In this document: piece after piece, positions 12,901 through 59,580 of the stretch
Layout: each line of letters opens with the position of its first letter
Position numbering within the stretch: the first letter of the stretch is position 1
NCBI RefSeq assembly: GCF_036588685.1
Contig: NC_086382.1
Coordinates: forward strand, 73,718,001-73,782,000
Source of the DNA: Mytilus trossulus
Taxonomy: Eukaryota
Length of the DNA: 64,000 nt
Reading direction: 5' to 3'
Notes under the pieces: model-generated
The model's database searches: none
What the model was told of the DNA's origin: nothing
What the model saw: only the letters and a program-made list of their open reading frames with translations
Position numbers and translations under genes: made by a program

Positions 12901-13566
12901 TCAATTAAAAAGAATTATAAGATGCACTTTGTAAATACAACTGTTTCTCAAACCACGCCTCCTCTTTTGGGGAGTTTTAGAATATTCATAGAAAATTAAT
13001 TTTGGTTACATACTGGTTCCGATTTATGATATCTGTGAACCATCTCATAGAGACCTAACTTGGGAATGTTACCAGTAAATATACACGAGCAATTTGTTTC
13101 TATTGAAATCCATGGTAACCTTTTATTCGAGGTAGGGTTAGTTAAGAAAAGAAGAGAGGTTCAGAGCATAAACGTTGAAAATATGCCGCACCGCCCTATA
13201 TTTTGAGTTGTAGTGCATATGAACTTTCAATTCTAGGATAAGATTTTATTCAAAACTTCATAGTAAAAGTGGTAAAGTTTAAGCCTTAAAGGGAAAATTG
13301 CATCGTCAATATTTACAGAAATGCAACCTTTAGCATAACATCTGACGAAGCTGAACTTCTAAATTTTATAAATCGTACTTTCCGGAAATTTTATCAGGTG
13401 TCCAACACAATGCAAAGTTACCAATTGGACAACAAACATATCATTTCATTGATACACACCCTATTAATAAGTATGATTACGTATGTTGTAACACTATAAG
13501 AAATCAGGGTAGTAGAATTAAGAATTACTGTAAAGTCTGCTTTTGATTGTTGAAATTACACCTTAA

Positions 13567-14458
13567 CAAACTGTGCCCCTCTACTTGCCGACTTGTGTCT
13601 TTATTATTATGAGGCTGATCTCATGCAGGAACTTCTTAGGAAGAAAGATAAGAACCAATATCCTTTAACTCTACTTTCCGCTATATAGATGACGTTCTTT
13701 CACTAAACAATTCAAAATTTGGTGATTATGTGGACGGCATATATTCCATCGAATTGGAGATAAAGGATACTACAGATACAGTTAAGTCGGCTTCATATCT
13801 TCACTTACATCTAGAAATTAACAATGAGGGTCGGTTGAAAACAAAACTTTACGACAAAAGAGATGATTTCAGCTTTCCAATTGTGAACTTTCCATTTCTA
13901 AGTAGCAACATTCCAGCAGCACCTGCATACGGAGTATTTATCTCCCAATTGATGCGATATCCTCATGCTTGCATTTCCTATCATGATTTTCTTGATAAAG
14001 GGTTACTGCTCACAAATCAGCTATTAAACCAAGAGTTCCAAACGGTGAAGTTGAAATCATCCCTTCGTAAATTTTACGGACGACATCACAAGTTGGTTGA
14101 CCGTTATGGAATAACCGTTTCACAAATGATATCGTATATGTTCCTTACGTCGTAACTACAATCCCCTTCCCTTTCATGAATGTGACCTACCGAATTAGAC
14201 TATTTACCGGTTTTGTAATCACATAAGCAACACGACGGGTGCCACATGTAGAGCAGAATCTGCTTACCCTTCCGGAGCACCCGAGATCACCCCTAGTTTT
14301 TGGTGGGGTCCGTGTTGTTTATTCTTTAGTTTTCTATGTTGTGTCATGTGTACTATTGTTTTTTGTCTTTTTTCTTTTTCATTTTTAGCCTTGGCGTTGT
14401 CAGATTGATTTATATTTATGAGTTTGATTGTCCCTTTGGTATCTTTCGTCTCTCTTTT
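13567..14458 (+). mobile_element. 5'-truncated Penelope-like (probably Naiad-type) retroelement, family 1
   Basis: NCAPLLADL, FRYIDDVLSLNN and KLYDKRDDFSFPIVNFPFLSSNIP; 3' UTR ending gtc(c/t)ctctttt shared with the copies at 23328, 43405 and 59178. Confidence 0.8.
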
Positions 14459-15361
14459 GATAACATTGTTTTGTGAATTCTTTTGCACAAACAACAGTTT
14501 AACTTTGTTTACTAGTTAATTATTTGTAGGTAAGAATTAGATATTGTTTGTTATCAACTAGAAATAATAAGTTTTAATCTATTGATATCAAATACCATTC
14601 AGATTAAAAATAAAAGTTGTTATCAAGTTATATCGATATCTCATGAGATGTTTAAACTATTTCTCTAATGACCAGCCGTTGAACTGATCTTTTGCACAAT
14701 CAACATAATTGTGCGATTCAGAATGTAAATAGAATTTGAAAACAAGTGATAAGTATAATTTTGTAAAATATTGAAGACATCGCAAATACGCGTTGCAATA
14801 AGAATGTGGCCTTCTTTAGTCTTGTATTATTCTAATTTTAGTTTCTTGTGTGCAATTTGGAAATTAGTGTGGCGTTCATTATCACTTAACTAATATATAT
14901 TTGTTAAGGGGTCAGCTGAAGGTCGCCTACGGGTGCGGGAATTTCTCGCTACATTGAAGACCTGTTGGTGACCTTATGCTGTTGTTTTTTTCTATGGTTG
15001 TTATCTCTTTGACACATTTCCTATTTAGATTCTCAATTTAACCTTTAACAATCATCAATGACTTAATGAATAGATCATGCAAATATTGTAATATAGAGTG
15101 GTCAGTGTTTTGTTATATATCTGCCTGTAAGAAATAACCAACAAGTCACAACTATAAGAGAATATAATAAATGTATCACAAAGAGTGAAGGATGTTGTTA
15201 ATTGTTCGTTCAAAAATCCAAGAAATATAACACAAGCCTTTGATGGTTGACTTGAGTCAATTTATATTTGTACATATACAAGTGGTTTTTATATGTATCT
15301 TAAACATACTAATATATCTCACCATTTAGTTTGGGTTATTCTTATTGTTGAAGGCCGTACG

Positions 15362-16010: not shown

Positions 16011-16110
16011 TTGGTTTGTTTAAAGGATTTTGATTAACTGTGGTTTGTGTAGATCTTTTATTCGACTAGTATTTACATTTAGAATTATATTCATATGTAT
16101 TTTCTTGCAG

Positions 16111-19020
16111 CTACAAGTTATACAGAAGAAACGAAATGCAGCGTTCAAAATGATAATATTGATTGCAGCCATTTAGATTTGACAACAATACCCAGGCATC
16201 TTCCAGTAAACGCGACCAGTCTGAACTTAATTTGGAACAGTATCAAAATAGTCAAAAGCTTTTCTTTTAAGTCTTTGCGATACATTACATACCTTGATTT
16301 GGGAAGAAATGTTATAGAGTTAATCGAGATAAATGCTTTCCATGGCCTACATCGTCTACGAACTCTACATCTTCACGACAATGTTATCAATGTTTTTCCT
16401 GACGGCATGTTCGAAAGACTAAATGGTTTACAAGTTTTGTCAATTGATGGCAATAAACTAAAATATTTCCAAGATGATAAAATAACAAAAGTATCAAAGA
16501 TCGTGTCACTGACCACACTTTCGTTTGACGTTTATCCAGATTTCAAATTTCCCAGGCAATGGGGTACGTTAAGTAAGTTGACAGATTTGAGGATATTTGC
16601 TATGTCAGCAAAAGTAAAATTCAACAAGGCAATGTTCGTTCATGTTAATATGATGCAAACTACTGCTCTCTCCATAAACGTTGTGCCGTTCATTTCGGAA
16701 GATTTTTTCGAACATTTTCCTAAATTAGAGTCAATAACACTATCGATAGGTAGTGATTTACCGAACAATCCAATAGACCAAGTATTCAAATCTTTTGGAA
16801 TTTTTAGGGGAAAGAACATTTCAAACCTTGAAATAAGGTCTGGCAGATTTGATAATTGGTTTATTTTAAATTACAAGAGAATGAGGTATTTATGGTCAAT
16901 TTGTTTGAAACGACTGACATTGAATAATCTTTACATTAAAGATATACCTATATATGCGATGCAAGTATTTTGTATCAAAAGCACATGTCTCGAGTACCTG
17001 GAATTTTCTGACAATATCATGTTTGACCGAGGAGCTGCTGTAGTTGCAGTTATGAATAATTTAAAAAATTTGAAAGTTTTGAAAATTACAAGAAATTGGC
17101 GTAATTCGAGAAGAAAACGCTCACAACCATCAAAATTATATAATTTTGTACTTCCAAAAACTCTTGAAGAATTGTATATAGAACATAACATGGATGGTGA
17201 TATGGCCGATGTTGAAGTTGTAAACGGTTTCAATCTACGTGTGCTAAGCTTGAAGGACAATGAAATGTGGTCATGCATTGGAACTTTTACAGGAATTATA
17301 AATGTGGAGTATACCTCAATCTCTTGGAATTTTTAGGGGAAAGAACATTTCAAACCTTGAAATAAGGTCTGGCAGATTTGATAATGGGTTTATTTTAAAT
17401 TACAAGAGAATGAGGTATTTATGGTCAATTTGTTTGAAACGACTGACATTGAATAATCTCTACATTAAAGACATACTTATGTATGCGATGCAAGTATTTT
17501 CTATCAAAAGTACATGTCTCGAGTACTTGGAAATTTCTGAAAATACCCTCTTCGACAAAGGAAGTTCCGCTGTATTTTTTGAAGTGAAGAACTTAGAAAA
17601 TTTGAAAGTTTTAAAAATTATTAGAAATTGGCGTACTTCGAGATGTAAACGCTCGCAACCATCAAACTTATATAGTTTTGTGTTTCCAAAAACTCTTGAA
17701 GAATTGCACATAGAACATAACATGGCTGGTGATATGGCCAATGCCAAATTTAAACACAATGAAAATCTTCGTGTGTTGAGCTTAAAAGACAATGAAATGT
17801 GGTCATGCATTGGTAGTTTTACAGGAATTATAAATGTAGAGTATTTTGATATGTCTGGATGGAGATGCGAAAAGCTTTCTATTAACTTGCTTTATGGTTT
17901 CCCAAATTTGAAAACATTGAAAGCAAGTGGGTCACATTTAGGAAAAGGATTTGTAAACCTTACGGGAGCTGGGTCTTTCTTGAGTAAGAATCTGAAATTG
18001 CAAGATATTAATCTTTCGTCTAATAGGATAAGCAGTATACCAGATGGATTATTTTTGCGCCCGTTTGAGAAGTTATCATCAGTTAACATGTCGTATAACA
18101 ATCTCACAATATTTCCTAAGTTTCATGCAAGTATCAAAACATTGAAAATAATTGATTTAACCTTTAACAGTATTACACACTTCAATAATGAAAATATTAA
18201 ACGAATAAAAAAGCTTGGAGAAGTTAATTTACTGTTGAGAGGTAATCCCTTTCAATGTTCCTGTAAAACAATACAGTTTTTAAAATGGCTTAGTGAGACA
18301 AACCGAGTGCAAGATATATTAGATCTGACCTGTGAAACTGAAAAGGCTTCCAGAAGGTTTATGTCTGATGTTATTTCTAATCTAAAGACATTTGAGATGT
18401 CATGCCAAACTAAATTCTGGTTGCCGTTTGCTGTGTCTTTAACCTCCATTATCATATTTTCTATGATATTAACCGTCGTATTCTTTCGATATAAATATGC
18501 TGTTGAGTACTTATTATTGCGATTAAAAATGAAAATGAGAAACTACAAGGAACTGACACAGGACTATTATTATGATGCTTTTATATCATATAGTCATACA
18601 GATTTGGAGTGGATTAAACAGTTCCATGACAAGATAAGCAATATGGGCTTCGAATTATGTCTGGACGCTAAGAATTTTATTGGCGGTAAACCTATAGCAG
18701 AAAACGTGCTCAATGCCATCGATTCCAGTAGAAAGGTTATATTCGTTGTGACTCACAATTTCTTAAAGAGTGAATGGGGCTCTTATGAAATGGAAATGAC
18801 CCGTATGCATGCTTTTCAGAAGGGGAGAGAAGATATGGTGATTGTTGTCGTAAAAGATAATATTAAGATAACCGATATGCCGGATGTGATGAAGAATATG
18901 TGGTTTAAAATAACATGTATTCAATGGCCAGATGATGACAACCTGCCATACAATACGGAGGAAATATTTTATGAAAAGATGAAAATGTCTCTGAAAATGA
19001 AGGAAGAAACTACTATATAA
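16111..19020 (+). pseudogene. TLR-A: single-cysteine-cluster Toll-like receptor, chimeric with an out-of-frame internal ~530-bp repeat (ORFs 16095-17336 and 17302-19020)
   Basis: Phase-1 acceptor ttttcttgcag|16111; LRRNT, LRRs, LRRCT NPFQCSC, TM FWLPFAVSLTSIIIFSMILTVVFF and TIR YDAFISYS; frame breaks at ~17315; signal-peptide exon not identified. Confidence 0.85.
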
Positions 19021-20289
19021 TATTCCAGAAGTTCAGCATAAAAAGTTTGCCATCATTTCAGAATAATTATCAAATTTGGGTAAAAAAACGTTGGTTAGTA
19101 GACATTTTATGTTTTTATAGATGTGCTATGAACCCTGACACAAGAAAGAGAAGAAGTAGAACGTATCTCCAGTCTATGATTCGTATATAAATGTGGTCAT
19201 ATTCTTAACTTTGTTGCTCTTGTATTCTCGTAAGTGTATCACATACTTGTTTTCATTTTGATTGTGTTATAAATCATTTTTTAAATTTTTTGCACGGTCA
19301 AACTTTTGGTTATGATTTTTCTTGTGATTGATATAACAGAAACACGTGTTGTACTCATAGAATATATTTGTTTTATTGTTGTTTGTTAGAAATATATATC
19401 AGAATCAGATATGTATCTAATAGGTTATTATGGATAAGAACATTATCAGTAGGAACAACATAATATTTACGCAATACTTGTTTTAGATTGATTGTGTTTA
19501 ACGTATTGTTTAGCTTATTGCAAATTTAGTGTCAGTCAGTTTCTGTTTGTGAAGGAAACCAAAGTACACAGAGAGAACAATCGAGTTTGTATTCTGTTTT
19601 AAGTGTGTTAACTTCTTATGCAAATTAGCTAACCCATCCGCGACGCATATAAGATAAACATTCCTATCGATTATCGAAACCTGGTGTGCTGTTGTTAATT
19701 CATTGAATGTGTCCGCTGTAATTCTGCAGTACAGTGTAATAAGTACTGTTATGTTTTTTCAGTTATGTACTTCTCTGTGCTAAGTTCTGTTGTTTGTACC
19801 GCATTCCTGTTACGTAGTGTGTCAATTAACCGATATGTTAAACATTGATATATACGCAAGAGTTAACAAAACAACCAGGTGCAACCAACTTTGTATCTGT
19901 AAAATGTAAAACATGGCAGTTGTTATCTAAAGTCTGTTTCTACGTATTTTAGCGCTTATTTTGTAGCTCAATGGTTTAGTTGTTCCGTTTTTGTTCCCCC
20001 GCTTTTATTTAACGTGTTTCCCTCGGTTTTAGCTTTTGACCCGAAAATGTGTTTGCGTGTAAGACTATGTTATGTGATTTCACATGTTATATCATAAAAA
20101 ATAAAACTATCTAAAACAATTTTCATTTGGAAATAATGCATCAAGTTACATCTAAATACTTATTTTTAAATCTAAAACAAAAATGCTATTGTTGGCTGTT
20201 TTTGCAATTTAGCATTTTAATGCAAGAAGTTTGAATATATTCAGTTAATTTGTTTACACCATTCAGAAGTATTTAACCAAGGAAAAATG

Positions 20290-22825: not shown

Positions 22826-25800
22826 ATGAACATTCTTAAGATTATACTTCTTTGGATCTTAACAGCCTTAAAAGAAGGTAAATTAATTCATTTATTTTAA
22901 TTATTACTATATTTCCAGTGGATATTCAGTTGACCATTGATGACTGTTTAAGGTTACGACCATGAACATTTGATGTATACGATGTCTTGAATAGTTTACA
23001 AAACACTTACACTTACACTTTTATCTTCATGCTTGATGATCAAAACAACACAATGTGTCTGTGTTTGGTATTGTCTTTGCATTTTGTACGGTTAAATATA
23101 TTTGTATTATTTAAGCGGTTTTTATATGTGACTTACACACAGGAGCTAGAAGTTTTTGCTTTACGATATATACTAGTATAGATTAAAAATTTACAAATAT
23201 GTTATGTTCTACATTGGTCAATATTATAGGTTTTGAATTCTTAAAGGGACACTAGCTACTAGAAATGTAAGAGAAAAATTAAGAATGATTGTATTGGTTC
23301 AATCATTTATAAAATACTTCAGATATGAACTTCTTTGGAAGAATGATAAGAAGTTAGCAATATCCTCTTACTCTACATTCCGCTATATAGATGATGTTCT
23401 TTCACTAAATAATTTAAAGATAAAGGATACTACAGATACAGTTATATTGGCCTCATATATTGACTTACATCTAGAAATTGACAATGAGAGTCTGTTGAAA
23501 ATAAAACTTTACGACAAAAGAGATGATTTCAGCTTTCCAATTGTGAACATTCCAGCAGCACTTGCAAACGGGATATATATCTCCCAATTTATACAATATT
23601 CCCGTGCTTGCATTTCCTATCATGATCAGGATCTGCCTACCCTTCCGGAGCACATGAGATCACCCCTAGTTTTGATGGGGTTCGTGTTGCTTATTCTTTA
23701 GTTTTATATGTTGTGTCATGTGTACTATTGTTTTTCTGTTTTTTTTTTTAATTTAAGCCATGGCGTTTTCAGTTTATTTTAGATTTATGAGTTTGACTGT
23801 CCTTTTGGTATCTTTCTCGTCCCTCTTTTGTACCATTTTGTTTCTTTTTTCAAATTAAGCAAAACATTCAGGATGATTTATTTACTTCTGACCGAATAAT
23901 TCGACCTCATTGAATCCATATTCATGTGAACTAAAATTTATAACCCCTTAGCTAAAGATTGTTAACTCAATCATTAGTCATGCTAGGTTATTTATAGGGA
24001 AGGATGTCAACATTGAAATGGGAAACAAAGGTAAGTCATTTTATTGACTGAATCGATCCACAAAAGATCATTCTTATACAGGTAATAGCGATGATTACGA
24101 CATATTTGTAATCTATAATAAGAAATTAAACAGACCAACGCCGTCGCGATTAAATAACACACAAAGCGAAGCTACGCATTAGCGAGCCTTTGCCCTACAA
24201 ATTGTTTATTTAAAGGATTTTATAACTTGAATTATCGGATTATGAATCAAATATGAGATTTTGAATCAAATCAATGAGCAAGTATTTGACAGGTAATGCC
24301 GCGTTAACCAATACGAAAAGAGTTGTTACAAATTTTCTTTTTGGTTTATCTGAAGGATTTTGATTTACTGTTATTAGAATAAGTTTTGTAAAGATCTTTT
24401 ATTTGACTAGTATTTACATAAAAAAATATATCAATACTTATATTCTTTCAGCTAAAGGTAATAGCAATGTAACGAAATGCAGCGTTCAAAACACCATTGT
24501 TGATTGTTGCAATTTAGCTTTCAACACAATACCCAGGCACCTACCAGTAAACGCGACGAATCTGGACTTAAGTAGAAACAGCATCAAAATAGTCAAAGGC
24601 TTTACCTTTCAGTCTTTGCGTTACCTCACCGACCTTAGTTTGGAAAGAAATGGTATACAGTTAATCGAGAAAAATGCTTTCCATGGGTTACATCGTCTAC
24701 AGAGTCTACATCTCAGATCCAATTTTATAAAATTATTTCCCGACGACCTGTTTGACAGACTGAATGGTTTGCAAGAGTTGTTAATTGACGGCAATAAACT
24801 ACAATACTTACAAGATAATGAGATAACAAAAATATTAAACATGTTAAAAATCATGTCATTGAGGAAATTTTCGTTTGACATATATCCAAATTTCAAATTT
24901 CCCAGTCAATGTGGTACGTTAGGTAAGTTGACAGATTTGCGGATTTACGCTAGGTCCAATTCAAAAAGGCAATGTTCGCTCATGTTAACGGGATGTCAAT
25001 AATGTCTATCTCCATAGTTATTGTGCCGTGTATATCGGAAGATTTTTTCGAACATTTTCCTAAATTAGAACCATTAAAACTTTCGATAGGTAGTGATTTA
25101 CCTAAAAATCCAATAGACCAAGTATTCAAATCTTTTGGAGTTTTCCATGGACGAAACATGATAAATATTGAAATAAGGATCGGCAGATTTGATAATGGGT
25201 TTAATTTAAATAACCAGAGAGTGAAGTATTTATGGTCAATTTGTTTGAAACGACTAACTTTGAGTGACTTATATATTAAAGACATATCTATATATGCGCT
25301 GCAAGTATTTTCTCTTCGAAGTACATGTCTTGAGTACCTGGAAATTTCCGAAAATTCTATCATGGACGAAGGAGGTACTTTCATTACACTTATTCAGAAC
25401 TTTAAAAATTTGAAAGTTTTTAAATATATAAGTAATTGGCGTCGTTCGAGAGGTAAACGCTCGCCTCCATTAAGATTATATATATTTATATTCGTATTGC
25501 CAAAAACTCTTCAAGAGCTTTATATAGAAGATAACATTGCGACTAAATTGACCAATGTTGAAATTATAAACGGCCATAATCTTCGTGTGTTCAGCTTGAG
25601 GGACAATGTCATCAGGTCATGTAAAGGTGGCTTTACAGGAACTATACATGTAGAGTATTTTGATATGTCTAGGTGGACATGCAAAAAGCTGTCATTTAAA
25701 TTATTATATGGTTTTCCTAATTTGAAAACGTTGAAAGCAATTGGGTCACTTCTAGGCCCTGGATTTGTCAACACTGCTGGAGCTGGGTCTTTCTTGAGTA

Positions 25801-27338: not shown

Positions 27339-30300
27339 AACAATGTTCACCATTTTTGGAAATGTTATGTTGTATAAAATTGTTTGTTATTTATTTTATA
27401 TTGATTTTAACCATTTCATTTGTTTGCACCTGTCTGTAGTCAGAAACTTGATGCTCAGTGGTAGTCGAAAATGCCTGTACCAAATGACAGTTGCTTTGTA
27501 TGCATGTGTATGCTTTTGCCTTTGATATTTCCATTTCATAAGGGACTTTCTGATTAGAATTTCAAATGGAGTTCGGTATTTCCTTTTTTAATCTTTTGTT
27601 TGAAATCATGACTTGTGAATTGGTGTCATAAAAATAAAAATTGCAATATTGATGTTTACTTCGCAACTCGGTTTGTAAACTCCCATCAAAACGTTTAAAC
27701 CCGCTGCATGGGTTTGCACCTAGTCTTAGTCAGGAACCTGATGTTCAGTGGTTGTTGTTTGTTGGTTGATGTGTTTCTCTTTTTTCGGTTTTTATAAGAA
27801 TAAAACCGTTGGTTTTCCTGTATGATTGGTTTAACACTTGCAATTTTTGGAGTCCTTTATGGCTTGCTGTACAATGTGAGCCAAAGCTCCGTGTTGAAAA
27901 TCTTACTTTAACCTTTAACGTTTTACTTTCAGAATTGTGACTTGAGTGAGGATGCCTTATTGGAGCTCATAACACATCTTTTAATATCTATATAGTATTA
28001 CGCTCATACCTAGGAGCTTTGACAATACACGTGTAATTATGTATTTTGGCTTTGACATGTTAAGACTTTTTATTGTTCTTGTGAAAAAGGTGGTTTAAGA
28101 AAAGTGCTTCTGACGCTTAAAATTTTCATATATTTAATTTCGTTATTTAAAGTCTTAGAAAATCATTACAGATCGGTGAGAAACAAAAAGAGAGCTTCAT
28201 CTGATTGGCTCCGATTCATGGATTGCTTTAACTGGTAATTGTGTTTGTTTTCATATCGATTTCTATCTATATCTTCATCATTGAAAACGCTTAAAAATAC
28301 CCATTTAATGTTTTTACACACGATAATTTTTTTTAAATTACATACCTATTTTTCTACTTTTACCACAGATAATATACACATTGAAATAGTCTTATCCATT
28401 TCTGGTGAGAATTTTCGTTTTATGTTTAGAATTTTTAATAATCGTGATTTCCTACAATATGATCAATGTTCTAAACACCAGTGTATGACTTAAATAAAAC
28501 ATATGGGTACCGTTGTTTGAAATAGACTGCTATCCTGCTAATCACGTGTTTGTCGCTCATATATTGTTTAATATAATTGAACCAATGCCAGTGATTTTTC
28601 ATAAACGATTTTCGATATTTATAAAAGTTTTAACTGCTGTTTTGGTTAGTCCCAATACTATATACTTCACATAATGTTTCATTCACATTAAAAGTCATAT
28701 TGTTTTAGTGTTTTCCTTTCAACAAGTCTATAGGTTTTTGGCCATCACAACTATATGACGTCATGCGTTGTTTTAGTATAGGTATCGTTTAACTAGATTG
28801 TAATCAAATGAAAGAGCAACTGGGTCAATCTATGTTATTTTCCTTTTTTCTAAATCTCAGATGTATATCTCCTTGTATATGGAAAGAAAGCGGTATCTTG
28901 TAACTAAATTATCTTTCATCTTTTGATACTACGATACACGCAACGCAATTAAATATGAAAATTTATAAAAAAAAAAAAAAATGTTCACGCATTCAGAATC
29001 AAATCCAAGCTGTAGTAAAAACATATATATATACATTTTAAATAAAATAATCAATAATAAATAATGATAACGATATTTTCTCTCATTACTATGTTTTTTT
29101 TTATTACCTTCTTTGATGCTGATAAAGAACACAATTGATTTGTTTTATAGGGTTTTTTTCATTTTATATTTAACAATTGTTTTTTCTATTTCGCCAAAAT
29201 AATTCATTGATGATCATTTATCTTTCAATTTTTTGATTTGCCTTGTTAATATTTCAATATGTTTTTATTACTAAGATTTTTTATGCAAATACCATCTGTT
29301 TAAAGATTTCTAACACTATCCTTAGGTTAATAAGCATACACACAAAAAGATAGACAAAACTTAAAAATACAGCAATGAAAAACAAACAGTTCCTATGAAG
29401 GTTAGACACAAGAGGAACTGATAACTAAGTTTAAAAACGGGGGAATAATCTCATCAGGTACGGATTATAGATCTCTGCACTTAAACACGTGATGGGGTAT
29501 TAAGCAACACTGATTACAACAAAAGATCTAAAATAAGAATATGTAAACATCCCCTCGCATATCTAGCCATGTCATATCGTAAGAGAGAGGTGTTGTATTG
29601 ATAGAATTACATACTGTTACTTTTTTTTCATTCCTTATGTATAGTTTTAGGTCTGTTTCTAATAGAATACTATATTTTAGGGAAATCATAGTTAGTATTT
29701 AAACTTTAAGTTTTAGTTACAATAACACACCAGGAAGTTGGAGTTCGTATTACAAGCATGTGACTGCATACACTGGAATACGTGATTTTGTCACTAAAAG
29801 TAATCTCACAAAAATAATTATGAACATCATAACTGTTGGACTATTTTGGAACTTAATATCCTTAAAAGAAGGTCAGTTTGCAAATTTGTAAAAAGACCAC
29901 TGTTAAAGGCAAGACTTGTGCCTTCCAAAAAAAGGAAAATCACAAGACTATTGAACTCCGAGGAAAATTCCAAACGGATAGTCCATAATCAAATGGCAAA
30001 ATCAATTGATAAAACACATCAAATGTATAGACAACAACTGCCAAATTCCTGACTTGGTACAGGCATTTTTAAATGTAGAAAATGGTGGATTGAACCTGGT
30101 TTTATAGCGCTAAACCTCTCACTTGCATGAATGTTGCATCACATGCTGTTACTTCCCAAGTATTACAAAAGTTGAATCTTAAGATTGTATTGGATAAAAA
30201 TATGTGCAACATCTAACAAACTCTAAAAATAAAAGAAATGTCACCATCTTTATAGATAGTGAGTCATGCTAGCTATTTTCTGATTTCTCATTACTTCCCG

Positions 30301-30795
30301 TATGAACAAGGAGATGTGGTAGGATTGACAATGAGACAACTATCTACAAAACATCAAAGTCACATATAGATTGTATGAAATCAATTAAAATATATAATGG
30401 AACAAGTTGGCAAGATGACGAGTACAGTGTGTTCCTATGATTCCAAATTTGTTGAAATACACGTCCTGCATACGAACACATCTTGTTTCCAGTAAAGAAA
30501 TCATATATATTCGTATACATCTTACAGAGAATGTTCTGTTCAAATCAACAAACAAACGAATCAAACCGTGTAAGGCAAAGTAGAATGACATCCACACCCA
30601 ATATTGTATGTTTAACTTAGAAAAGCTCAAAGTAAATCGATGATTAATTATATACTTTAAAGATGATGACAGATACAAATGTCTCAACTTTAAACCCTCA
30701 ACTCTAGATTGTTTATGATAAACAGTTATCTTACATGTTTTATTCGTCAAATATAAGGCATGTACGTTAAGATCAATATTTATTTACTCTTGCAG

Positions 30796-31508
30796 TTCAA
30801 AGTAAAGGAAATAAGACGGAATGTATCGAGGAAAATGCACATGTTAATTGCAGATTTGTGAATTCCTGCAAAACAAAGTTTTGGTTACCGTTTGCCGTGT
30901 CTATAACCTCAATTATCATGTTTGCCATATTATTAACCGTCGTATTCGTTCGATATAGATATGCTGTTGAGTACTTTTTATTGAAATTCAAAATGAAAAT
31001 AAGAAATTATAAAGAATTAAACCATGAATATACTTATGATGCTTTTATATCATATAGTCATGCAGATACGCAATGGATTAAACAGTTCCATGACAATGTT
31101 ACCGGTATGGGTTTCGATTTATGTCTAGATACCAAGGACTTTACCTGTGGTCCTGGTATTGCAGAAAATATTATAAATGCAATCGAATCCAGCAGAAAGG
31201 TGATATTTATTATAACTCACAATTTCTTAAAGAGTACTTGGGGATCGTATGAAATGGAAATGACCCGCATGCATGCTTTTCAGAAGGGAAGAGAAGACAT
31301 GGTAATTGTTGTTGTAAAGGATGAGATAAAGGTATCCGATATGCCGGAAGTATTAAAGTGTATGTGGTTTAAAATTACATGTATTCAATGGCCGAACGAT
31401 GACAACCTGCCTTACAATACGAAAGAAATATTTTATGAAAAGATAAAAATGTCTCTCCAAAGGAGGGAGGATACTACTTTACTGTATTCTAGAAATTCAG
31501 CTGTATAG
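30796..31508 (+). CDS. TLR-C: LRR-less Toll-like receptor (LRRNT cap fused in frame to end of LRRCT, TM, intact TIR)
   Basis: Phase-1 acceptor ttactcttgcag|30796; reads QSKGNKTECIEENAHVNC-R-FVNSCKTKFWLPFAVS...TIR...YSRNSAV*; 566 codons missing relative to TLR-D; exon 1 uncertain. Confidence 0.8.
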
Positions 31509-31747
31509 AGCCTTTGCCATCATTTCAGAAATATAAACTAATGATAAGTCCTACTTTTATAAGTTGGAGTCAAAAGTACGATTTCCTGCAAAGCTTATTG
31601 ACTACATTAGTTTTGGATTAACAGTGATTAAAATATTCCAATGAGACTAAAAAAGGATTTTTGTTGTTGTGATAAATGATAATTTTACCTGACGTAGACG
31701 TGTGAAAAATTAATTTCGAAATTTTACTTCCAAAAATTACTTGTGTA

Positions 31748-33058
31748 ATGCCCGCGTCACACTGTCCCGATTTTTATATACGATGAACACCCGAATGCGA
31801 TAATTGTAAGTTCGTACGAAGTTGGTCCCGATCTCGTTAAAATACCAAAAAGTGACCGAAGCAAGTACGATGAATAACGAAGTCTATACGATGGTGCCGA
31901 AATTATATACGATAGCAAAAGACGGACATACGAAGGTTAACCGAAGACGAGTATTTAAGCTTCATATCTCAGCCGAATCCTACAAGATGGATCACGAAGG
32001 TTTCACGATGGACCACGAAGGCTACACGATGGATTAAGATGATGGCGCGATGACCATACGTTATTTCTAGTTACTGAATGTTTTGGTCGATTTCTAAAAA
32101 TATAGTTTATGTATCAAATATGCATATTCAATGATATGGGGAAAGCAGTAAATGCGGCAAAATATGACATATCGAAAACAAAATGGTTATGGAGTACACT
32201 TTCGTGTGACAACAACTCAGACGATACATAAAAAATCAGAATAATGAAGAAAACGTTGGTTTCCCAATATACGTGTACCTGCAGTGTTGGTGTACGAGGC
32301 GCGTTTATGATTTTCATTATATTACTTGATATGAAAAATTGACAAAAAAATGATATTTTAATTGAAAAAGTAAATCCTGAGCCTGTAATAGCTGCTCTTC
32401 TTGTTCCATTTGAATTAATAGAAACAACGCTGTCGCCTTTCTTGTTCTCATAGAATTATATGAAATAAGCTCCATGTTTTGTGAATGACTTTCTTATCTT
32501 TCGTATTAGACCGACAAGTGCATATCGAGCATGGCACTTTAAATGCATTTCAGAGCGAAAATTAACTCAAATTTAACTGGATTTATTGACGTCGTAGTTC
32601 CATCTTGTCGCCTTCGTACTTTTATTCGATGGCAACACGACGGGTTTACGAGGTCTTCACGAAGTCGTGTTGCCATTGTAAGACCTTCGGGTATCTTCGT
32701 GATTCATTCATGTAGACATCATAATGTCAAAACTGCCCGGTGGAAACGATGGAAACACGATTGCAATACGATGTTCAAAGATGCATTCCCGGTGACATAA
32801 CGATGGTGAGGATGGTGATACGAACTCAATACTTATCCTCATCGTCGGACGTACCTTCGAGGATTTTTTAACATGTTAAAAAACTTAGAACCCTTCCCGA
32901 AGTTGTCCCCGAAGGCTAGAAAAAGTGGCAGATGGTTCTACGATGGTTAAAGATGGCACTACGAATAGCCTGATCTGGATACGATCAGTCCCGATTTTGA
33001 AAATTTCCATAATCGTGTTGCCATCGGCGTAAAAATCGGGACAGTGTGACGCGGGCAT
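31748..33058. mobile_element. 1.3-kb non-autonomous DNA transposon with 29-bp perfect TIRs and TA target duplication
   Basis: TA|atgcccgcgtcacactgtcccgattttta ... taaaaatcgggacagtgtgacgcgggcat|TA; ACGAT/ACGAA-rich subterminal repeats; no transposase. Confidence 0.9.
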
Positions 33059-39491: not shown

Positions 39492-42400
39492 ATGCACATT
39501 ATTAAAATCATATTCCTTTGGATCGTAACAGCCTTACAAGAATGTAAGTTATTTCATTTGTTTTTATTTATTACTATATTTCCAGTGGCTATTCAGTAGG
39601 ACATTGATGACTGTTTAAGGTCAAGACAATACACATTTCCACTGATATATGCGATGTATTCAAAAGTTCACATAACACTCACACTTAAACTCTTCTCATC
39701 ATGCTTGGTGATCAAAATAACACAATTTGTCTATGATTGTTGATTATGCAATGTTTGGTGATTGTCTTCGCATTTTCAAGGTTAAATATATTTGTATTAA
39801 TGTGGTTTTTATATGTGACTAACACACAGGAGCTAGCAGTTATTATTTTTACGATGTATACTCGTATAGATTAAATGGTTACCAGATTGAATGCTCTATG
39901 TTCTACATTGATCCATATCAGGTTTTTTTTTATTTTTAAAGGGGCACTAGCTATGAGATATGTTAAACATTCCAATTACGAGTTTTGTTTTGTTCTATTA
40001 TCAATAAAAGACTTATAGTGAAATAATACTTTGCCTTAGCAGCCAGTATGGTTTATTTTTGTCAAATTAAGCTAAAACATTGATGATGATTTATTTACTT
40101 GCGAGAAAATAATTTGAGCTTATTGAATTCGTATTCATGTCAACTTAAATGTTACCCCTTAGCTAGAGATGGTTAATTAATGCATTGGTCGTGTTAGGTT
40201 ATTTATAGGGAAAGAATGTCAACATTGAAAAGTGAAACAAAGGTAAATCATATGATTGACTGATTTGATCCACAAAAAATCTTTGTTATACAGGTAATAA
40301 CGATGATTAAGACATATTTTTAATCTATAATATGAAATGAAACATCCCTAGAAAAATCCAATGGACGAGTTTGCTTCTATGTATATCTACATTGATGTTC
40401 ATATCGCTTATATGAATCGGAGGTCAATTCTGTAGTTTATTAGAAGCTGTATCATTTGAATTACACACGAAACGAAGCTACGCATTATCGAGGCAATGCC
40501 CTTTAACTTGTTTGTTGTAGACATTTTATAACTTGAATGAATGTATTACCGGGTTAAAAATTCAAATATTATTATTTGAGTCAAATCGGTTAACAAATAT
40601 TTGAAAGTAAATGCCGCTTAAATCAATACGAAAGAGGTGTTTCAAATTTTCTTTTTGGTTTATCTGAAGGATTTTGATAAACTTTTATTTGAATAAGGTT
40701 TGTATAGATCTTTGATTCAACTAGTCTTGACATCAAAAATTATATTAATACTTATATTTTTGCAGCTAAAGGTTATAGTAATGAAACGAAATGCAGCGTT
40801 CAAAGCACCAATGTTAATTGCTGCAATTTAGCCTTGACCACAATACCAAAGCACTTACCAGTAAACGCGACGAATCTGGACTTAAGTAGAAACAGCATCA
40901 AAATAGTCAAAGGCTTTACCTTTCAGTCTTTGCGATATCTCACCGACCTTAATTTATTTAGAAATGGGATACAGGTAATCGAGAAAAATGCTTTCCATGG
41001 ATTACATCGTCTACGGAGTCTACATCTTAGTTCCAATTCTATAGAATTATTTCCCGACGGCATGTTTGACAGACTGAATGGTTTACAAGAGTTGTCAATT
41101 GAATGCAATAAACTACAATACTTACAAGATAATGACATAACAAAAATATTAAACATGTTAAAGATCGTGTCACTGAGGAAATTTTCATTTGACATATATC
41201 CAGATTTCAAATTTCCCAGTCAATTAGGGCCGTTAAGTAAGTTGACAGATTTGGGGATTTTCGCTAGGTCGGCTAAAGTACAATTCAATAAGGCAATGTT
41301 TTCTCATGTTAATTTACTGCAAATACTGTCTCTATCCATAGATGTTGTACCGTTCATATCGGATGATTTTTTCGAACATTTTCCTAAATTAGATTCAATA
41401 ACACTTTCGATAGGTATTGATTTACCTAAAAATCCGATAGACCAAGTATTCAAATCTTTTGGAGTTTTCCGAGGAAGAAACCTGACGAGCATTAATATAA
41501 ATACTGGGAGATTTGATAATGGGTTTATTTTAAATTACAAGAGAATGAGGTATTTATGGTCAATTTGTTTGAAACGACTGACATTGGATAATCTCTACAT
41601 TAAAGACATACTCATTTATGCGATGCAAGTTTTTTCTATCAAAAGCACATGTCTTGAGTACCTGGAAATTTCTGAAAATACCATCTTCGATCGAGGAGGT
41701 TCTTTACTTTCAGTTATGAAAAACTTAAAAAATTTGAAAGTATTGAAACTTAAAAGAAATTCGCGTAGTTCGAGAAGTAAACGCTCACAACAACCAAGCT
41801 TATTTAGTTTCGTGCTTCCAAAATCTCTTGAAGAATTGTATATAGAGCATAACATGGCGGGTGATATGACCGATGTTGAATTTATAAACGGTATCAATCT
41901 TCGTGTGCTAAGCCTGAAGGACAATGAAATGTGGTCATGCATTGGAACTTTTACAGGAATTATAAATGTTGAATATTTTGACATGTCTGGATGGAGATGC
42001 GAAAAGCTGTCAATAAATTTGCTATATGGTTTTCCAAATTTAAAGACATTGAAAGCCAGTGGGTCACATCTAGGAAAAGGATTTGTAAACCTTACTGGAG
42101 GTGGGTCTTTTTTTAGTAAGAATCTGAGATTGCAAGATATTAATCTTTCGTTTAATAGAATAAACAGTATACCAGAAGGACTACTTCTGCGCCGGTTTGA
42201 GCAATTATCATCAGTAAACATGTCATATAACAATCTTACAATATTTCCTAAATTTCATGCAAGCATCAAAACATTGAAAATAATTGATTTGACCTTTAAC
42301 AGTATTACACACTTCAATAACGAAGACATTGAACACATTGAAAAGCTTGGAGAAGTTGATATACTCTTGAGAGGTAATCCCTTTCAATGTTCCTGTAAAA

Positions 42401-43176
42401 CATTACAGTTTTTAAAATGGCTAAGTGAGACAAATCGAGTACAGGATATCTTAGATCTGACATGTGAAACTGAAAAGGCTTCCAAAAGGTTTATGTCTGA
42501 AGTTATTTCTAATCTAAAGACATTTGAGATGTCATGCCAAACTAAATTCTGGTTGCCGTTTGCCGTGTCTATAACCTCCATTATCATACTTGCTATGATA
42601 TTAACCGTCGTATTCTTTCGATATAAATATGCTGTTGAGTACTTTTTACTGAGATTCAAACTGAAAATGAAAAATTACAATGAATTGCAACAGGAATTTA
42701 TTAATGATGCCTTTATATCATATAGTCACACAGATTTGTTATGGGTAAAACAGTTTTATGACAGGGTAAACAGTATGGGCTTCGAATTATGTCTGGACGC
42801 CAAGGACTTTATTGCTGGTGAAAGTATAGCAGTAAATGTAATAAATGCAATCGATTCCAGCAGAAAGGTTATATTTATTATAACTCACGATTTCTTAAAG
42901 AGTAGTTGGGGGTCATATGAAATGGAAATGACCCGTATGCATGCTTTCCAGAAAGGAAGAGAAGATATGGTAATTGTTGTTGTGAAGGATAATATTAAGA
43001 TAGCAGATATGCCGGATGTGATGAAGAATATGTGGTTTAAAATTACATGTATCAAATGGCCGAACGATGACAACTTGCCATACAATACGGAGGAAATATT
43101 TTATGAAAAGATAAAAATGTCTCTCCAAAGGAGGGAGGATACTACTTTACTGTATTCTAGGAATTCAGTTGTATAG
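39492..43176 (+). CDS. TLR-D: intact single-cysteine-cluster Toll-like receptor, 820 aa (exons 39492-39543 and 40766-43176)
   Basis: Signal exon MHIIKIIFLWIVTALQE-T|gtaagt (phase 1); acceptor tttttgcag|40766 in frame with ORF 40834-43176; LRRNT, LRRs, LRRCT, TM and TIR uninterrupted. Confidence 0.95.
39940..40502. mobile_element. TTAA-flanked non-autonomous DNA transposon (Kolobok-like) in the TLR-D intron
   Basis: TTAA|aggggcactagc ... gcaatgccct|TTAA with imperfect TIRs. Confidence 0.55.
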
Positions 43177-43404: not shown

Positions 43405-44370
43405 TTTCTTGATTGACAACATATTTGTTACGTTCGGAGGACGTGTTTTCAACAGACTGTCGGCATCCCAATGGGAACAAACTTGCCCCTCTACTTGCTG
43501 ACTTGTTTCTTTATTATTATGAGACTGATTTCATGCAGGAACTTCTTAGGAAGAAAGATAAGAAGTTTGCAATATCCTTTAACTCTACTTTCCGCTATAT
43601 AGATGACGTTCTTTCACTAAACAATTCAAAATTTGGTGACTATGTGGATCGCATCTATCCCATCGAATTGGAGATAAAGGATACTACAGATACAGTTAAG
43701 TCGGCTACATATCTTGACTTACATCTAGAAATTGACAATGAGGGTCGGTTGAAGACAAAACTTTACGACAAAAGAGATGATTTCAGCTTTCCAATTGTGA
43801 ACTTTCAATTTCTAAGTAGCAACATTCCAGCAGCACCTGCATACGGGGTATATATCTCCCAATTGATACGATATTACCGTGCTTGCATTTCCTATCATGA
43901 TTTTCTTGATAGAGGGTTACTGCTCACAATGAAGCTATTAAACCAAGAGTTCCAAATGGTGAAGTTGAAATCACCCCTTCGTAAATTTTACGGACGCCAT
44001 CACGAGTTGGTTGACCGTTATGGAATAACCGTTTCACAAATGATATCGGATATGTTCCTAACGTCGTATTTGCAATCCCCTTCCCTTCCATGAATTTGAC
44101 CTACCGAATAAGACTATTTACCGGATTTGTAATCACATAAGCAACACGACGGGTGCCGCATGTGGAGCAGGATCTGCTTACCCTTCCGGAGCACCTGAGA
44201 TCACCCCTAGTTTTTGGTGGGGTTCGTGTTGTTTATTCTTTAGTTTTCTATGTTGTGTCATGTGTACTTTTGTTTTTCTGTTTGTTTTTTTCATTTTTAG
44301 CCATGGCGTTGTCAGTTTGTTTTAGATTTATGAGTTTGACTGTCCCTTTGGTATCTTTCGTCCCTCTTTT
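43405..44370 (+). mobile_element. 5'-truncated Penelope-like family 1 element ~230 nt after the TLR-D stop
   Basis: GIPMGTN/LAPLLADLFL (frameshifted), FRYIDDVLSLNN, YDKRDDF and HHELVDRYG; conserved 3' UTR. Confidence 0.85.
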
Positions 44371-45814
44371 TAACAAGTAGCAACATATGTATTTTTTGCA
44401 AAGAAGAACCAGAGGCGGTCGCAAGTCTTTGTCATGCCCTAAATCACAGGATTTTCAAAATGACAAATATTGAACTGCCTTTGAATATTAAAATTATTCT
44501 GTTTGAAAAACTTCGAAAAAAAGAAATTGCATTTTGATAAAATAATATTGTCTGCTTAAAAATACCATATCCACCGAACAAACTTACAAGAAGTGAGGAA
44601 TACATTTGATTTAAAATCTTCTCTATAGAGTCATATAGCAAACACTGGAGCTCCTGTAATCCTATTATAAAATAAATAAAAAACACACCGGGTTTTGTTT
44701 ACCATTTTTTATTTAAACTGCACAAATAGATATTCCAAAAAACGAATTAGATTTCATTGTTCTAAGCTAATTATTTATGTTCAACCTAATGTTGCACTTT
44801 TTTAAATTCAATTGTTGTTTTTTATTTAAACTTTCCTTAGTGTGAATATGCCATTCAGTATGCTTTTGTTCATAGATTTTGTGCTACATGTAGTCTAATT
44901 GTAACAAAAAAAATTTATTAAAAAACTCAAAAATATCTTTAAGATAATCTGTTTATGCTTCTATATTTACTTTTAAACTCTTAATTTTTTTATTCTGTAT
45001 ATTTATCTGGGTTTTTCCTAATGTCCAAAATAAAACAATATTTAAGTTAAGTGGTAGCTTATTTAGGACTTTTTTATTCATACTTCTATTAAATTATTTC
45101 TAAATGTCAAATATTTTTGGACAAATCAATATTAAATAATATATTTTAGTTTTGCATTGATTTTGTATTGACATTGATTTGTGTCTTAAACTCTGTGTAT
45201 GATTATGAATGGGGCTACTGTAATTTTTAATTTTTGTTTTGTACAATGACATCATAAACACTTTATTTCAGATCATATTTCATATAAAAACAATTAGAAG
45301 ATATGGTATGACCGCAAATGAGGCAACTCTCCACAAGATTTTAACTAGAATATGCATACTTCTTTCTCACAACCACAATACCCGCACTGTAAACTGTAAA
45401 GTACTAGGGTATACACTAAAGACACGAGGTTACATTCTACTGCTTTAACATATCACGAAAAACAAACACTGCCTTAAATATAGATATAGTTTGATTGCAA
45501 ATGAGACAACACTCACCAAGAGAAAAGATGACACATAATGTCTATTAAGATATCAAAACCACTTTTCCTATGATGTGATATTTGTGTTTTGTCGTTAAAA
45601 CATTGTACATTTTTGTTAACGTATTTTAGATTTTTAAAATATTGATAATAATTGGACAATAAAGGCATAACAACCGGGTGCGGGAATTTCTCGCTGCATT
45701 GAAGACCTGTTATTGACCTTCTGTTTTTGTCTGCTTTCTGGTCGGATTGTTGTCTCTTTGATACATTCCACATTTCCATTCACATTTTTTATTCAAATCT
45801 CATTACATTTAATA

Positions 45815-53024: not shown

Positions 53025-53352
53025 TAGCTAGTGCTATACAACTGCCAGTGTCAACAGCTGGTTATATACAACTTCCGACGTCAACAGCCAGTTCTATACA
53101 ACATCCGACGTCAACATACAGTGTTATACAACTTCCGACGTCAACAGCTAGTGCAATACAACTTCTGACGTCAACAGCCAGTGCATACAACTTCCGGTGT
53201 CAACAGCTAGTGCTATACAACTTCCGGTGTCAACAGATAGTACTATACAATTTCGGTGTCAACAGCCAGTGTTATACAACTTCCGGTGTCAACAGCAAGT
53301 GCTATACAACTTCCGGTGTCAACAGCCAGTGCTATACATCTTCCGGCGTCAA
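53025..53352. repeat. 30-bp minisatellite (~11 units) derived from the kinase stop-codon region
   Basis: Unit acaacttccggtgtcaacagc(c/t)agtgctat; on the - strand it reads LTPEVV*HWL. Confidence 0.9.
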
Positions 53353-56300
53353 CCATTCATGTTCTAAAATATCATTCATTGCTATCCTTCTGACTTCGTC
53401 TACTGTCAGCATCCTTGTCAGCAAATCTCTGCAATCTGAAATATTCATAAGAAATAAATTATACTACATGTAAGTATCGTTGGATTATTTCATTTAGTGC
53501 ATGTATATATGATAAATATTGAGTAACTTACAGCACGGGGCGCTTATTCATACATGCATACAGCTAATAACGTTGAAAGTTGATCCGAACGACCGAATTG
53601 TTCTGCATGTCCGACGATAAATTAAAACCATTTAACCTGTTTACCAAGCCTATCAAGTTCAAACTGGGTCCCTTTTCTTCCATAAAGGAGCTTCTGAATC
53701 ACTCATTTGATATAAAATTGCACTTCTGTGTAACTTTTCGAGTAAATTATAGGATCAAGTAAACGTACCTTCAGAACGTTTTTCTGTTATTTCACAACCT
53801 TGTAAACAGACATTTCAAGTAAGGCAATACGTCATAATAAACTTACGTTCAGAAATTGTGGAGGGAATTTCACAGCCTTGTAAAATACTAAAGTATAGGG
53901 ATACAAAGTTGTTTTTGGATTCCATGGTAAACGGCAAAGTTCCAATCAAAAGGTAAAATAAATTTACTCCTCTGAAAAATAAATATAACCATGTAAAACA
54001 ACTTGTTGGGTATTATACATGAAAAAAACTAACATATACTCAGAAATCGGCAATCGCTTCAGTTAAAGATCGTCCTTTTTTAAACTTCATTATTCACATT
54101 TTTTTACCATATATTACATGTATATATCTCATCTTTACAGAACATTATCTTACTATCTTATTCAAATCTCTATCGATCATATACTATTCAATTTGTATTG
54201 TTTATTGACGGCTCTATCTATAAATGAATAAGCAGAACTTTCAATTATGGGCACTATCTATCAATTGATAACTAGAAGACTAATGATTCTGAATATATAT
54301 ACGAAGATGTGGTATTAGTGCCAATGAGACAACTCTTCATCCAAGTAACAATTTATAAAAGTATACCATTATAGGTCAAAGTATGGTTTTCAACGTGGAG
54401 CCTTCAAGTTGACTCAAAACGAACAGCATACTATAAAGGACCCCCCCCCCAAAAAAAAAAAGAAAAAAACTATGGTAAACCCATTCAAACGGGAAAACCG
54501 ACGAAAAAAACCCGAGAAATTCCTGTTTATTTACGACTCTTTCTGTGATAAAAAAAATCAAAATCGTATTGTGTTATAATAACTCGAGACTATTTGGTAA
54601 AATAATCAGAACAAGATTTAAACAATTTGAATTTTCATTTTTCACTGATTTAAGGGATCAAATATTTATCCTTTTTCAAAATATAAAAGAACAACAAAAA
54701 CATAATCCATGGCCAACTAATTCTTAAATTCACAAACAAACGTCTGATATATTTGATATTTATTTATTACAGCTCATATACAAACGTATATGTACATAGA
54801 ATTTACTTCTTTATACTTTTACTTTTAATAAAAAGGTTAGAATATTTTTTTCCAACTTGAATATCCTATTTTGCTTAAAAAGTCTCCCTCTATTATTCGG
54901 AACATAGTCACTTCGATGGAATTACGCCATCATCTTGTAAAAAGATCCTAGATTTGACCCTTAACTTTAAAAAGGAATAAAGTGATTGAAATATATAATT
55001 TAATGAAAGTGTAAGAATATTCTGACACTTTAACAGATAGGCTTTTAACAGATAGGCTTTTAAAAGATAACTAAGAATAATGATTAACTTAATAATTTTA
55101 CGGTTCGTAGATAAAATTGTTTGTACTTGAAGACACCATATACCCGATGAATAATTAACATGAAAATTAACGGTTTGTAGACAGAATTATTAGTACTTAC
55201 AGACTCCATATATCTAACATAGTACTTACAGACTCCATATATCTGATGCTGTAGTATAGTTCCTTTTACTGAGTACTTCCGGTGCAATAAACGAAGGAGA
55301 ACCACAAAAGTTAAGTTTGTTTTCTATTCCTTCAACACTAGTACTCAATCCAAAGTCTGATCAATGAAAATAAATAGGAAAAAAGTCAAAACACAAAAAT
55401 ACTGAACTCAATAACTGAATAATGAAAAGATAACTATCTAAGTATAATCTATCTTAGAACTATCTATCTATAACAGGGATGCCGATATTGAAATTGTAAG
55501 TTGATTAAGCGAATTGTTGGGCTTTATGTATATATTAGAAACGGATATTACGGTTATTGGTGTATTTGATTCATCTGGTATTCAAATATCTAGACATATT
55601 TGAAGTAAAAAACAAACTAAAGACGATTAAGTCTACGCCTGTAGTTGGAATTGTGTATATATGGAGAACAATCAGAACTCAACATATAAATAACTTATTT
55701 CAATAATGGACTTAGTCAGATTTGACTTACTGTTTGAGGATTTGAACATTGAAAGCAAATAACAGAAAGAGTTTCTAATATCCGACATACTTATGATAAC
55801 AAACTATTACATTACCTGTATATATTAAATATTTAATCAAAGATTACCTGCTATTTTCACTTTTCCTTCTTTTTCTAAAACCATATTATCTAGTTTTAAA
55901 TCCCTGTGAATATAAAATTACCATTGTTAACCATGCACATCTTCTTATCTATATTTATGTATATCATATATCAGGGTTTTAAAGGTTTTATCTATCAATG
56001 TCTTCAAAATGTCTTCAATACTTAATTGCATTCGTAAAGAAACAAAAACGTTTCGTTTATTTGTTATGATAGTGTACCTGCTGCACATTTGAAAGAAACT
56101 GAAAATGCATTTGTTTGTTATCTTTTTACCATAAAATATCTAAATAGGTTGATAATAATAGTAAGAAGCTTAAATCAATATTCTGATTCAAGAAAGAAAA
56201 AACTGTTCCGTTTTGGTCTGAAGAGCTCGGGCTATTTTAAAATGAAGTTGCTGCCTAATTGCCTTATATTGATTCCGGATGGAGAAGCACTTTTATCTTC

Positions 56301-59177: not shown

Positions 59178-59580
59178 AATCATCCCTTCGTAAATTTTAC
59201 GGACGCCATCACGAGTTGGTTGACCGTTATGGAATAACCGTTTCACAAATGATATCGGATATGTTCATAACGTCGTAACTACAATCCCCTTCCCTTTCAT
59301 GAATGTGACCTACCGAATTAGACTATTTACCGGATTTGTAATCACATAAGCAACACGACGGGTGCCACATGTGGAGCAGGATCTGCTCACCCTTCCGGAG
59401 CACCTGAGATCACCCCTAGTTTTTGGTGGGGTTCGTGATGTTTATTCTTTAGTTTTCTATGTTGTGTCATGTGTACTATTGTTATTCTGTTTGTCTTTTT
59501 CATTTTTAGCCATTGCGTTGTCAGTTTGTTTTAGATTTTTGAGTTTGACTATCCCTTTGGTATCTTTCGTCCCTCTTTTT
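59178..59580 (+). mobile_element. Short 5'-truncated Penelope-like family 1 copy in the region 5' of the kinase ATG
   Basis: SSLRKFYGRHHELVDRYG plus a 3' UTR nearly identical to 43970-44370. Confidence 0.85.

Follow-up and report, generated by a model that had tools for sequence, protein, structure and literature searches.

The window analysed here, a 64,000-nt stretch of the Mytilus trossulus genome (G000:C10:73718001-73782000), carries a tandem cluster of TLR genes: TLR-A (16.0-19.0 kb), TLR-B (24.4-26.9 kb), a short gene that we call C, and TLR-D (40.7-43.2 kb). An intact 816-aa TLR, designated U, lies directly upstream of the window (G000:C10:73711481-73714799). Gene C consists of two exons (29820-29871 and 30796-31508) whose 765-nt coding sequence is open and, once spliced, specifies a 254-aa protein identical to an automatic model for Mytilus trossulus (XP_063405390.1, 'toll-like receptor 2 type-2', 254 aa). 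The predicted product comprises a signal peptide, a 26-aa stub with three cysteines, a transmembrane (TM) helix and a TIR domain (Table 1).

Table 1. Features of gene C in window coordinates
Feature	Position	Strand	Remarks
5′ UTR, to the limit of the spliced contigs	29739-29819	+	X9 record 23 begins at 29739
Coding exon 1	29820-29871	+	ATG 29820, phase-1 GT donor after 29871; homologous to exon 1 of U
Intron, 924 nt, GT..AG	29872-30795	+	Acceptor AG 30794-30795
Exon 2 start: signal peptide end and LRRNT remnant	30796-30854	+	NKT sequon, Cys27 at 30822, Cys36 at 30849
Deletion junction	30853-30854	+	1689 nt lost vs U, 1698 nt vs TLR-D
Final LRRCT residues	30855-30881	+	Fourth LRRCT Cys = Cys42 at 30867; its three motif partners deleted
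Transmembrane helix, residues 47-70	30882-30953	+	AlphaFold helix 44-70, pLDDT 85-89 for residues 51-70
TIR domain, residues 97-238	31032-31457	+	Pfam, AlphaFold, Foldseek
BB loop of TIR	31128-31154	+	Cys135 aligned with human TLR2 Pro681
C-terminal tail and TAG stop	31458-31508	+	
3′ UTR, as far as RNA-like contigs extend	31509-31775 (about)	+	ATTAAA at 31627

Other members of the subfamily in this genome have irregularities of their own. TLR-A (16011-19063) contains an internal tandem duplication of ~520 nt (16789-17312 vs 17318-17844, 87%), the frame being broken where the two units meet. In TLR-B the frame breaks near 24.95 kb (24930-25005) and the C-terminal tail is shifted, reflecting either an assembly error or a pseudogene. 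Two more TLR copies of the subfamily, each frame-broken, lie ~1 Mb away (L017-L019, G000:C10:72735136-72753244). A repeated element with a short, putatively reverse-transcriptase-like open frame recurs between the TLR genes (13565-14465, 23237-23837, 43413-44375 and 59174-59580); its copies, which resemble one another at up to 93-96%, are possible seeds of unequal crossing-over. A tandem repeat with a period of ~60 nt and a Thr/Ser-rich open frame occupies 53026-53353. On other chromosomal segments we noted a broken TIR copy with three stops inside another TLR cluster (L037, G000:C8:34934073-34934633), with no ectodomain match within 1.5 kb, and three clustered TIR loci (L038:1420-2643(-), L042:1468-2670(-) and L039; G000:C5:44.47-44.50 Mb) whose TIRs are 35-42% identical to P0002. 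The exon that encodes the TIR also encodes ~200 aa upstream of it, a region with no Pfam LRR match in L038 and L042 and no tblastn match to six TLR ectodomains in the group; L039 is frame-broken in appearance. The three form a group of their own, of TM-TIR receptors that are probably non-LRR.

Structure and splicing of the short gene

The sequence-only reading had proposed that exon 2 of C keeps its acceptor and an open TM, TIR and tail, and that an LRRNT cap is joined in frame to the end of an LRRCT. Both proposals hold: an AG precedes the exon, 30796-31508 is stop-free, and TECIEENAHVNC meets FVNSCKTK at 30853/30854. Most of the predicted signal peptide (MNIITVGLFWNLISLKE) is encoded in exon 1; the 5′ UTR contains a single upstream ATG, at 29758, with a stop immediately after it; and pieces of high-copy repeats lie inside the intron near 29929-30130 and 30305-30364.

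Evidence that this gene is intact and spliced comes from sequence runs in the form of assembled contigs of guessed or unspecified kind, none of them on record as RNA, for which the terms RNA-like and DNA-like are guesses. At least half of the sampled words of the locus were present in 20 of the 24 listed runs (10 studies, 3 organism codes). Contigs bridge the junction with at least 31 nt on each side in all seven of those 24 that were examined (X1, X2, X3, X4, X5, X9 and X14; 7 study codes, 3 organism codes), so the junction is not an assembly artefact and a collapse of the assembly is ruled out as its source, although one DNA run among the seven could be the sample behind the assembly itself. 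The joint from exon 1 to 30796, skipping 924 nt with GT..AG borders, was found in contigs of 4/4 runs of one set (4 studies), each with this single joint and no unique cover of the intron; two DNA-like runs cover the intron, and in the run set containing X3 the splice is not among the 15 joints listed out of 62, a list taken up by repeats. Spliced contigs of X5, X9 and X14 carry exon 1 and the junction together, ruling out a truncated gene model. The three points on which the earlier reading had made the gene depend are thus borne out in contigs: exon 1 is usable, with its ATG and donor, and is spliced; transcripts, to the extent that the guessed kind of the contigs is right, enter exon 2; and the junction recurs in independent contigs rather than in raw reads.

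The leader of C is homologous to the signal peptide of U and has a hydropathy peak of 2.67 over 7 residues, with cleavage predicted after VQS; Asn replaces Ile11 in the signal-peptide core in C only. Two LRRNT cysteines are kept, and from the LRRCT only the last of four, which in full-length relatives is the equivalent of Cys42. The stub Cys27, Cys36 and Cys42 and the NKT sequon are common to C and its counterparts in two further species, described below. An ectodomain of ~27 aa with three cysteines had been predicted; the cysteines are as stated, whereas we count the mature stub (K21-F46) as 26 aa. The accompanying prediction of one unpaired cysteine stands as well, since with the partners of Cys42 deleted the number is odd and one cysteine must be free or bonded between chains. 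LRR cap chemistry is the basis for proposing that Cys27 pairs with Cys36, which would make Cys42 the free residue.

We detected no LRR in the product by Pfam at E up to 1; the TIR scores above cut-off with both PF01582 and PF13676. AlphaFold (mean pLDDT 70, pTM 0.57) predicts the TM helix and the TIR fold with confidence and gives the stub and the BB loop a pLDDT under 50. The best Foldseek matches to the TIR are those of TLR1, TLR6, TLR15 and TLR2, with TLR2, TLR1 and TLR6 leading among solved structures, and in a tree of TM-TIR proteins it is nested in a mussel TLR clade.

Origin and age of the deletion

Relative to U, C has lost 1689 nt, or 563 codons, between the LRRNT and the LRRCT end. 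The two genes align over promoter, exon 1, intron and LRRNT (71-75% in blocks), a genome search with exon 1 of C gave no match other than U, and the TM-TIR regions share 87% nucleotide identity. By these sequence comparisons the closest parent is a U-type TLR, for which present-day U serves as a proxy only. TLR-D was considered as the parent and rejected, as exon 1, the intron and the LRRNT are all more similar to those of U. In its 3′ tail and UTR C resembles D more than U, and a grouping of the short clade with U is not recovered in the TM-TIR protein tree, nor does the tree reject it (p-AU 0.27). The sequence-only reading had measured the loss against TLR-D, and its figure of 1698 nt is correct (40822-42519 of TLR-D are absent from C), but it overlooked the true nearest relative, along with the repeat at the breakpoints, the counterparts in M. 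edulis and M. galloprovincialis, the elevated dN/dS of the TIR and the frameshifted variant described below.

At each breakpoint U carries the same 9-nt sequence, an exact direct repeat with a spacing of 1687 nt; only ~0.1% of random breakpoint pairs are expected to lie within 3 nt of such a repeat. Because of this repeat we favour microhomology-mediated repair. A clean join at the repeat would produce a frameshift, and C lacks two further bases there, which puts it in frame. A tandem copy of a U-type TLR has thus lost 1689 nt from LRRNT to LRRCT end, likely through microhomology-mediated end joining that was imprecise or was followed by a later compensating loss, the two extra bases going and the frame being kept open. 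Genome searches, whose counts are lower bounds, revealed no second short copy in this M. trossulus genome. An undeleted allele was likewise absent among 33 longer protein matches, which is weak evidence; the nearest full-length protein to C reaches 83% identity at most.

Two predicted proteins without a name, VDI10787.1 of M. galloprovincialis (251 aa) and CAG2252772.1 of M. edulis (256 aa), have the same junction, the same three cysteines and the NKT sequon. They form the one junction-bearing cluster among 30 matches in a search for proteins of similar length, and a search with the first 80 residues (5 matches) added no further carriers. Protein searches gave no junction-bearing counterpart in M. 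coruscus or M. californianus, where annotation gaps may hide one. The intact M. edulis and M. galloprovincialis copies are protein-database entries, and a broken copy would not show up among these. In the TM-TIR tree, built from 7 genome copies and 23 database proteins (30 rows; the proteins were picked from 63 matches plus the cluster member P0031, and P0057 was left out because no anchor motif could be located in it), the three short proteins group together with support of 99/99, and of 99 when the junction residues are omitted. Since they share a junction and form a single clade, the sequences indicate one deletion that preceded the split of the M. trossulus copy from the M. edulis and M. 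galloprovincialis copies.

If, as is likely, that split coincided with the species split, placed at ~3.5 Myr (PMC5192891), the deletion predates the separation of the species. VDI10787.1 and CAG2252772.1 are likely orthologues of C, because a D-like TLR, P0062, sits on a contig of the same size as that of CAG2252772.1. Alternatively, the two may be paralogous copies or old alleles, since they differ from C at 25-27 of 198 TM-TIR residues, exceeding the 3-23 differences of full-length cross-species pairs.

Selection and variation

We estimated dN/dS with our own codon model over 198 codons of 7 genome copies, four of the background copies being frame-broken elsewhere and the C branch including time before the deletion. 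On that branch TM+TIR dN/dS is 0.42 against a background of 0.22 (p=0.08) and differs from 1 (p=0.019); for the TIR only it is 0.59 against 0.16 (p=0.008), compared with 0.11-0.39 on other terminal branches, and does not differ from 1 (p=0.32). Differences among the three short copies must postdate the deletion, and of these only 2/23 in the TIR fall at columns invariant in 25 relatives, where the neutral share is 0.46 (p=1.4e-4); for TM+TIR the count is 5/30 against 0.405 (p=0.005; 25 relatives). The dN/dS check proposed earlier for the TIR has therefore come out both ways, the invariant-site test rejecting neutrality and the ratio itself being raised.

These data bear on the pseudogene possibility, also raised from the sequence. 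A dead pseudogene is disfavoured because the TIR core is conserved in three species, and in addition the frame is open and the splice is used; the TIR dN/dS of 0.59 speaks for the other side. C shows neither a disabled frame nor a lost splice nor a missing transcript, and the one frameshifted variant is found in X3 (RNA-like; record 17, window 30807-30960). That variant is diverged, carrying 8 substitutions and lacking 1 nt at 30838, has a depth of 7.6 vs 15.3 and would stop early; it is likely a null haplotype or a second copy. Within the splice-showing run set the coding differences are T165S, D199Y and one synonymous change, with L63V in all four runs.

A subtler form of decay is that C is an expressed duplicate without a role, which inherited its promoter and exon 1 and has kept its frame by luck and by weak selection against misfolded protein. 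The TIR ratio, the frameshift variant and the predominance of missense differences between runs are what slow decay would produce, as are the high turnover implied by frame breaks in no fewer than four TLR copies nearby (A, B, E1, E2), the presence/absence variation of ~30% of mussel TLRs (PMC10279657), and the last ~10 residues of P0002, which differ as if frameshifted after the TIR (its 217-nt 3′ tail is not at issue). Set against this, post-split changes avoid invariant TIR sites, and codons 1-240 are stop-free in 3/3 short copies despite 42 amino-acid changes, over which by our arithmetic (0.085 stops per missense) ~3.6 stops are expected, while the intron blocks on its flanks have accumulated 9 non-triplet indels for every 100 substitutions. 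Nor is the conservation explained by gene conversion: no long tracts from paralogues were found, the longest identical runs being 25-38 nt vs 23-87 nt among full-length pairs. We regard such decay as rather unlikely. On the sequence evidence, C is real and spliced, has been retained in evolution as an LRR-less derivative of a TLR, and has an origin that can still be read. The evidence of selection is mixed; a functional role of some kind is probable.

Function and relation to known receptors

Our preferred reading, to which we assign a probability of roughly 0.4, is that C is a retained, ligand-blind membrane TIR that signals tonically, under control of its expression. Targeted to the membrane and devoid of the ectodomain that holds TLRs inactive, the TM and TIR would self-associate; Cys27 and Cys36 would pair as in an LRRNT, and Cys42, left free 5 residues from the membrane, would form an intermolecular disulfide. 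The clustered TIRs would recruit MyD88-type adaptors, and output would depend on the amount of C that a cell makes. We favour this reading because ectodomain-less TLR4 and a Cys-mutant Toll are constitutive and because FIAG, the BB-loop tip of the family, is intact in two of the three short copies (M. edulis and M. galloprovincialis). Human TLR4 with its ectodomain deleted (delta1-563) is described as constitutively active (PMC13753708), and Toll10B as rendered constitutive by a Cys substitution (PMC12979810). In its strongest form, C would be a naturally evolved always-on TLR whose autoinhibitory solenoid went in one deletion, whose signalling dimer is locked by Cys42 and which blue mussels have kept for >3 million years as a transcription-controlled immune switch. 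We hold this form to be doubtful; if true, the TM-TIR architecture of sponges and Hydra would have been re-invented recently in a bilaterian, with breakpoints and parent gene still readable.

TIR changes cluster in residues 106-149 (alphaA-BB loop-alphaB; 22/37 vs 90/277 in other clades, Fisher p=0.002, for a region chosen post hoc), and alphaC and alphaE have few. The short copies share the clade-specific changes N137P, V143I and D148E, and the M. trossulus copy has novel BB-loop residues T134 and C135, residue 135 aligning with Pro681 of TLR2, a site that affects MyD88 recruitment in TLR2 (PMC3634009). These changes may have retuned or damped the output of C, and they are what would be expected of a dominant-negative or decoy, in which the tethered TIR would bind sister TLRs or MyD88 by its conserved faces without passing the assembly on, and so damp signalling of the cluster. 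A damped or inhibitory role is also attractive because a constitutive immune signaller could be costly. However, position 135 is already Ala, Val or Gly, not Pro, throughout the subfamily, Cys being found in C only, FIAG persists in 2/3 short copies, and engineered ectodomain-less TLR4 activates and does not inhibit; an inhibitory C seems unlikely to us.

It is also conceivable that C is a co-receptor or membrane adaptor, silent until a ligand-bound full-length sister TLR or some separate LRR protein recruits it, in the manner of Hydra TRR/LRR pairs. Its architecture matches that of the Hydra TM-TIR proteins, which pair with LRR proteins (PMC3367398 and PMC6043800), it adjoins closely related full-length TLRs, and its juxtamembrane Cys and TM helix are conserved. 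Nearby LRR-without-TIR frames are only pieces of frame-broken TLR copies, though, and a 26-aa stub offers a small binding surface; we consider this arrangement improbable.

When LRR-less TM-TIR proteins turn up in invertebrate genomes, they are usually regarded as fragments. In the largest mussel TLR survey LRR, TM and TIR were all required, so that LRR-less proteins were filtered out (PMC10279657), and another study lists 8 M. edulis contigs with TM+TIR only, of which completeness was not established (PMC3308963). C is undescribed in the literature that we searched, mostly without subscription papers, and the supplements of these two studies might list it; the same literature describes no natural whole-solenoid deletion in a mollusc TLR. 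C is a complete, spliced gene derived from a datable deletion, with a full-length sister adjacent and counterparts in two species, and because sister and counterparts exist it offers a natural before/after comparison in which ectodomain autoinhibition can be examined beyond mammals and flies. It also bears on the route from TLRs to sensor-less TIR receptors; should C prove to be decaying, it would be no more than a tidy example of TLR turnover.

Like a canonical single-cysteine-cluster (scc) TLR, C has a predicted signal peptide, a single TM helix and a TLR-type TIR nested among TLR TIRs, but it lacks the LRR solenoid (563 codons absent vs U) and its caps are incomplete, with two LRRNT cysteines and one of four LRRCT cysteines. 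The scc TLRs of the cluster (U, TLR-D; M. edulis P0042 and P0048) share its two-exon layout, phase-1 intron, leader, LRRNT start, TM and TIR; C is set apart from these by the lack of every LRR and of most of the LRRCT, by its odd count of extracellular cysteines and by faster TIR change on the BB-loop face. Sea-urchin short TLRs also have shortened ectodomains within an expanded invertebrate family (PMC3367398) but keep nine LRRs with intact LRRNT and LRRCT; C has no LRR. Human TLR4 delta1-563 and Drosophila Toll10B resemble C in that the ectodomain is removed or a juxtamembrane Cys unpaired; they are laboratory constructs or mutants, whereas C is natural and common to three species, and its activity is putative. 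Hydra HyTRR-1/2 and the TM-TIR proteins of sponges and cnidarians are, like C, LRR-less membrane TIRs. The parallel with Hydra drawn in the sequence-only reading applies to architecture (TM + TIR, no LRR) and not to descent: C is 87% identical to U in nucleotides, and its TIR matches the fold of the Hydra TRR-2 TIR (E 3.7e-5) with 22% amino-acid identity. Hydra-type TRRs are ancient lineages, whereas C is a recent deletion derivative that bears LRRNT and LRRCT scars within a mussel TLR clade. C thus stands outside the canonical TLRs, having no LRRs, and outside the Hydra-type TRRs, being of other descent, and it resembles both.
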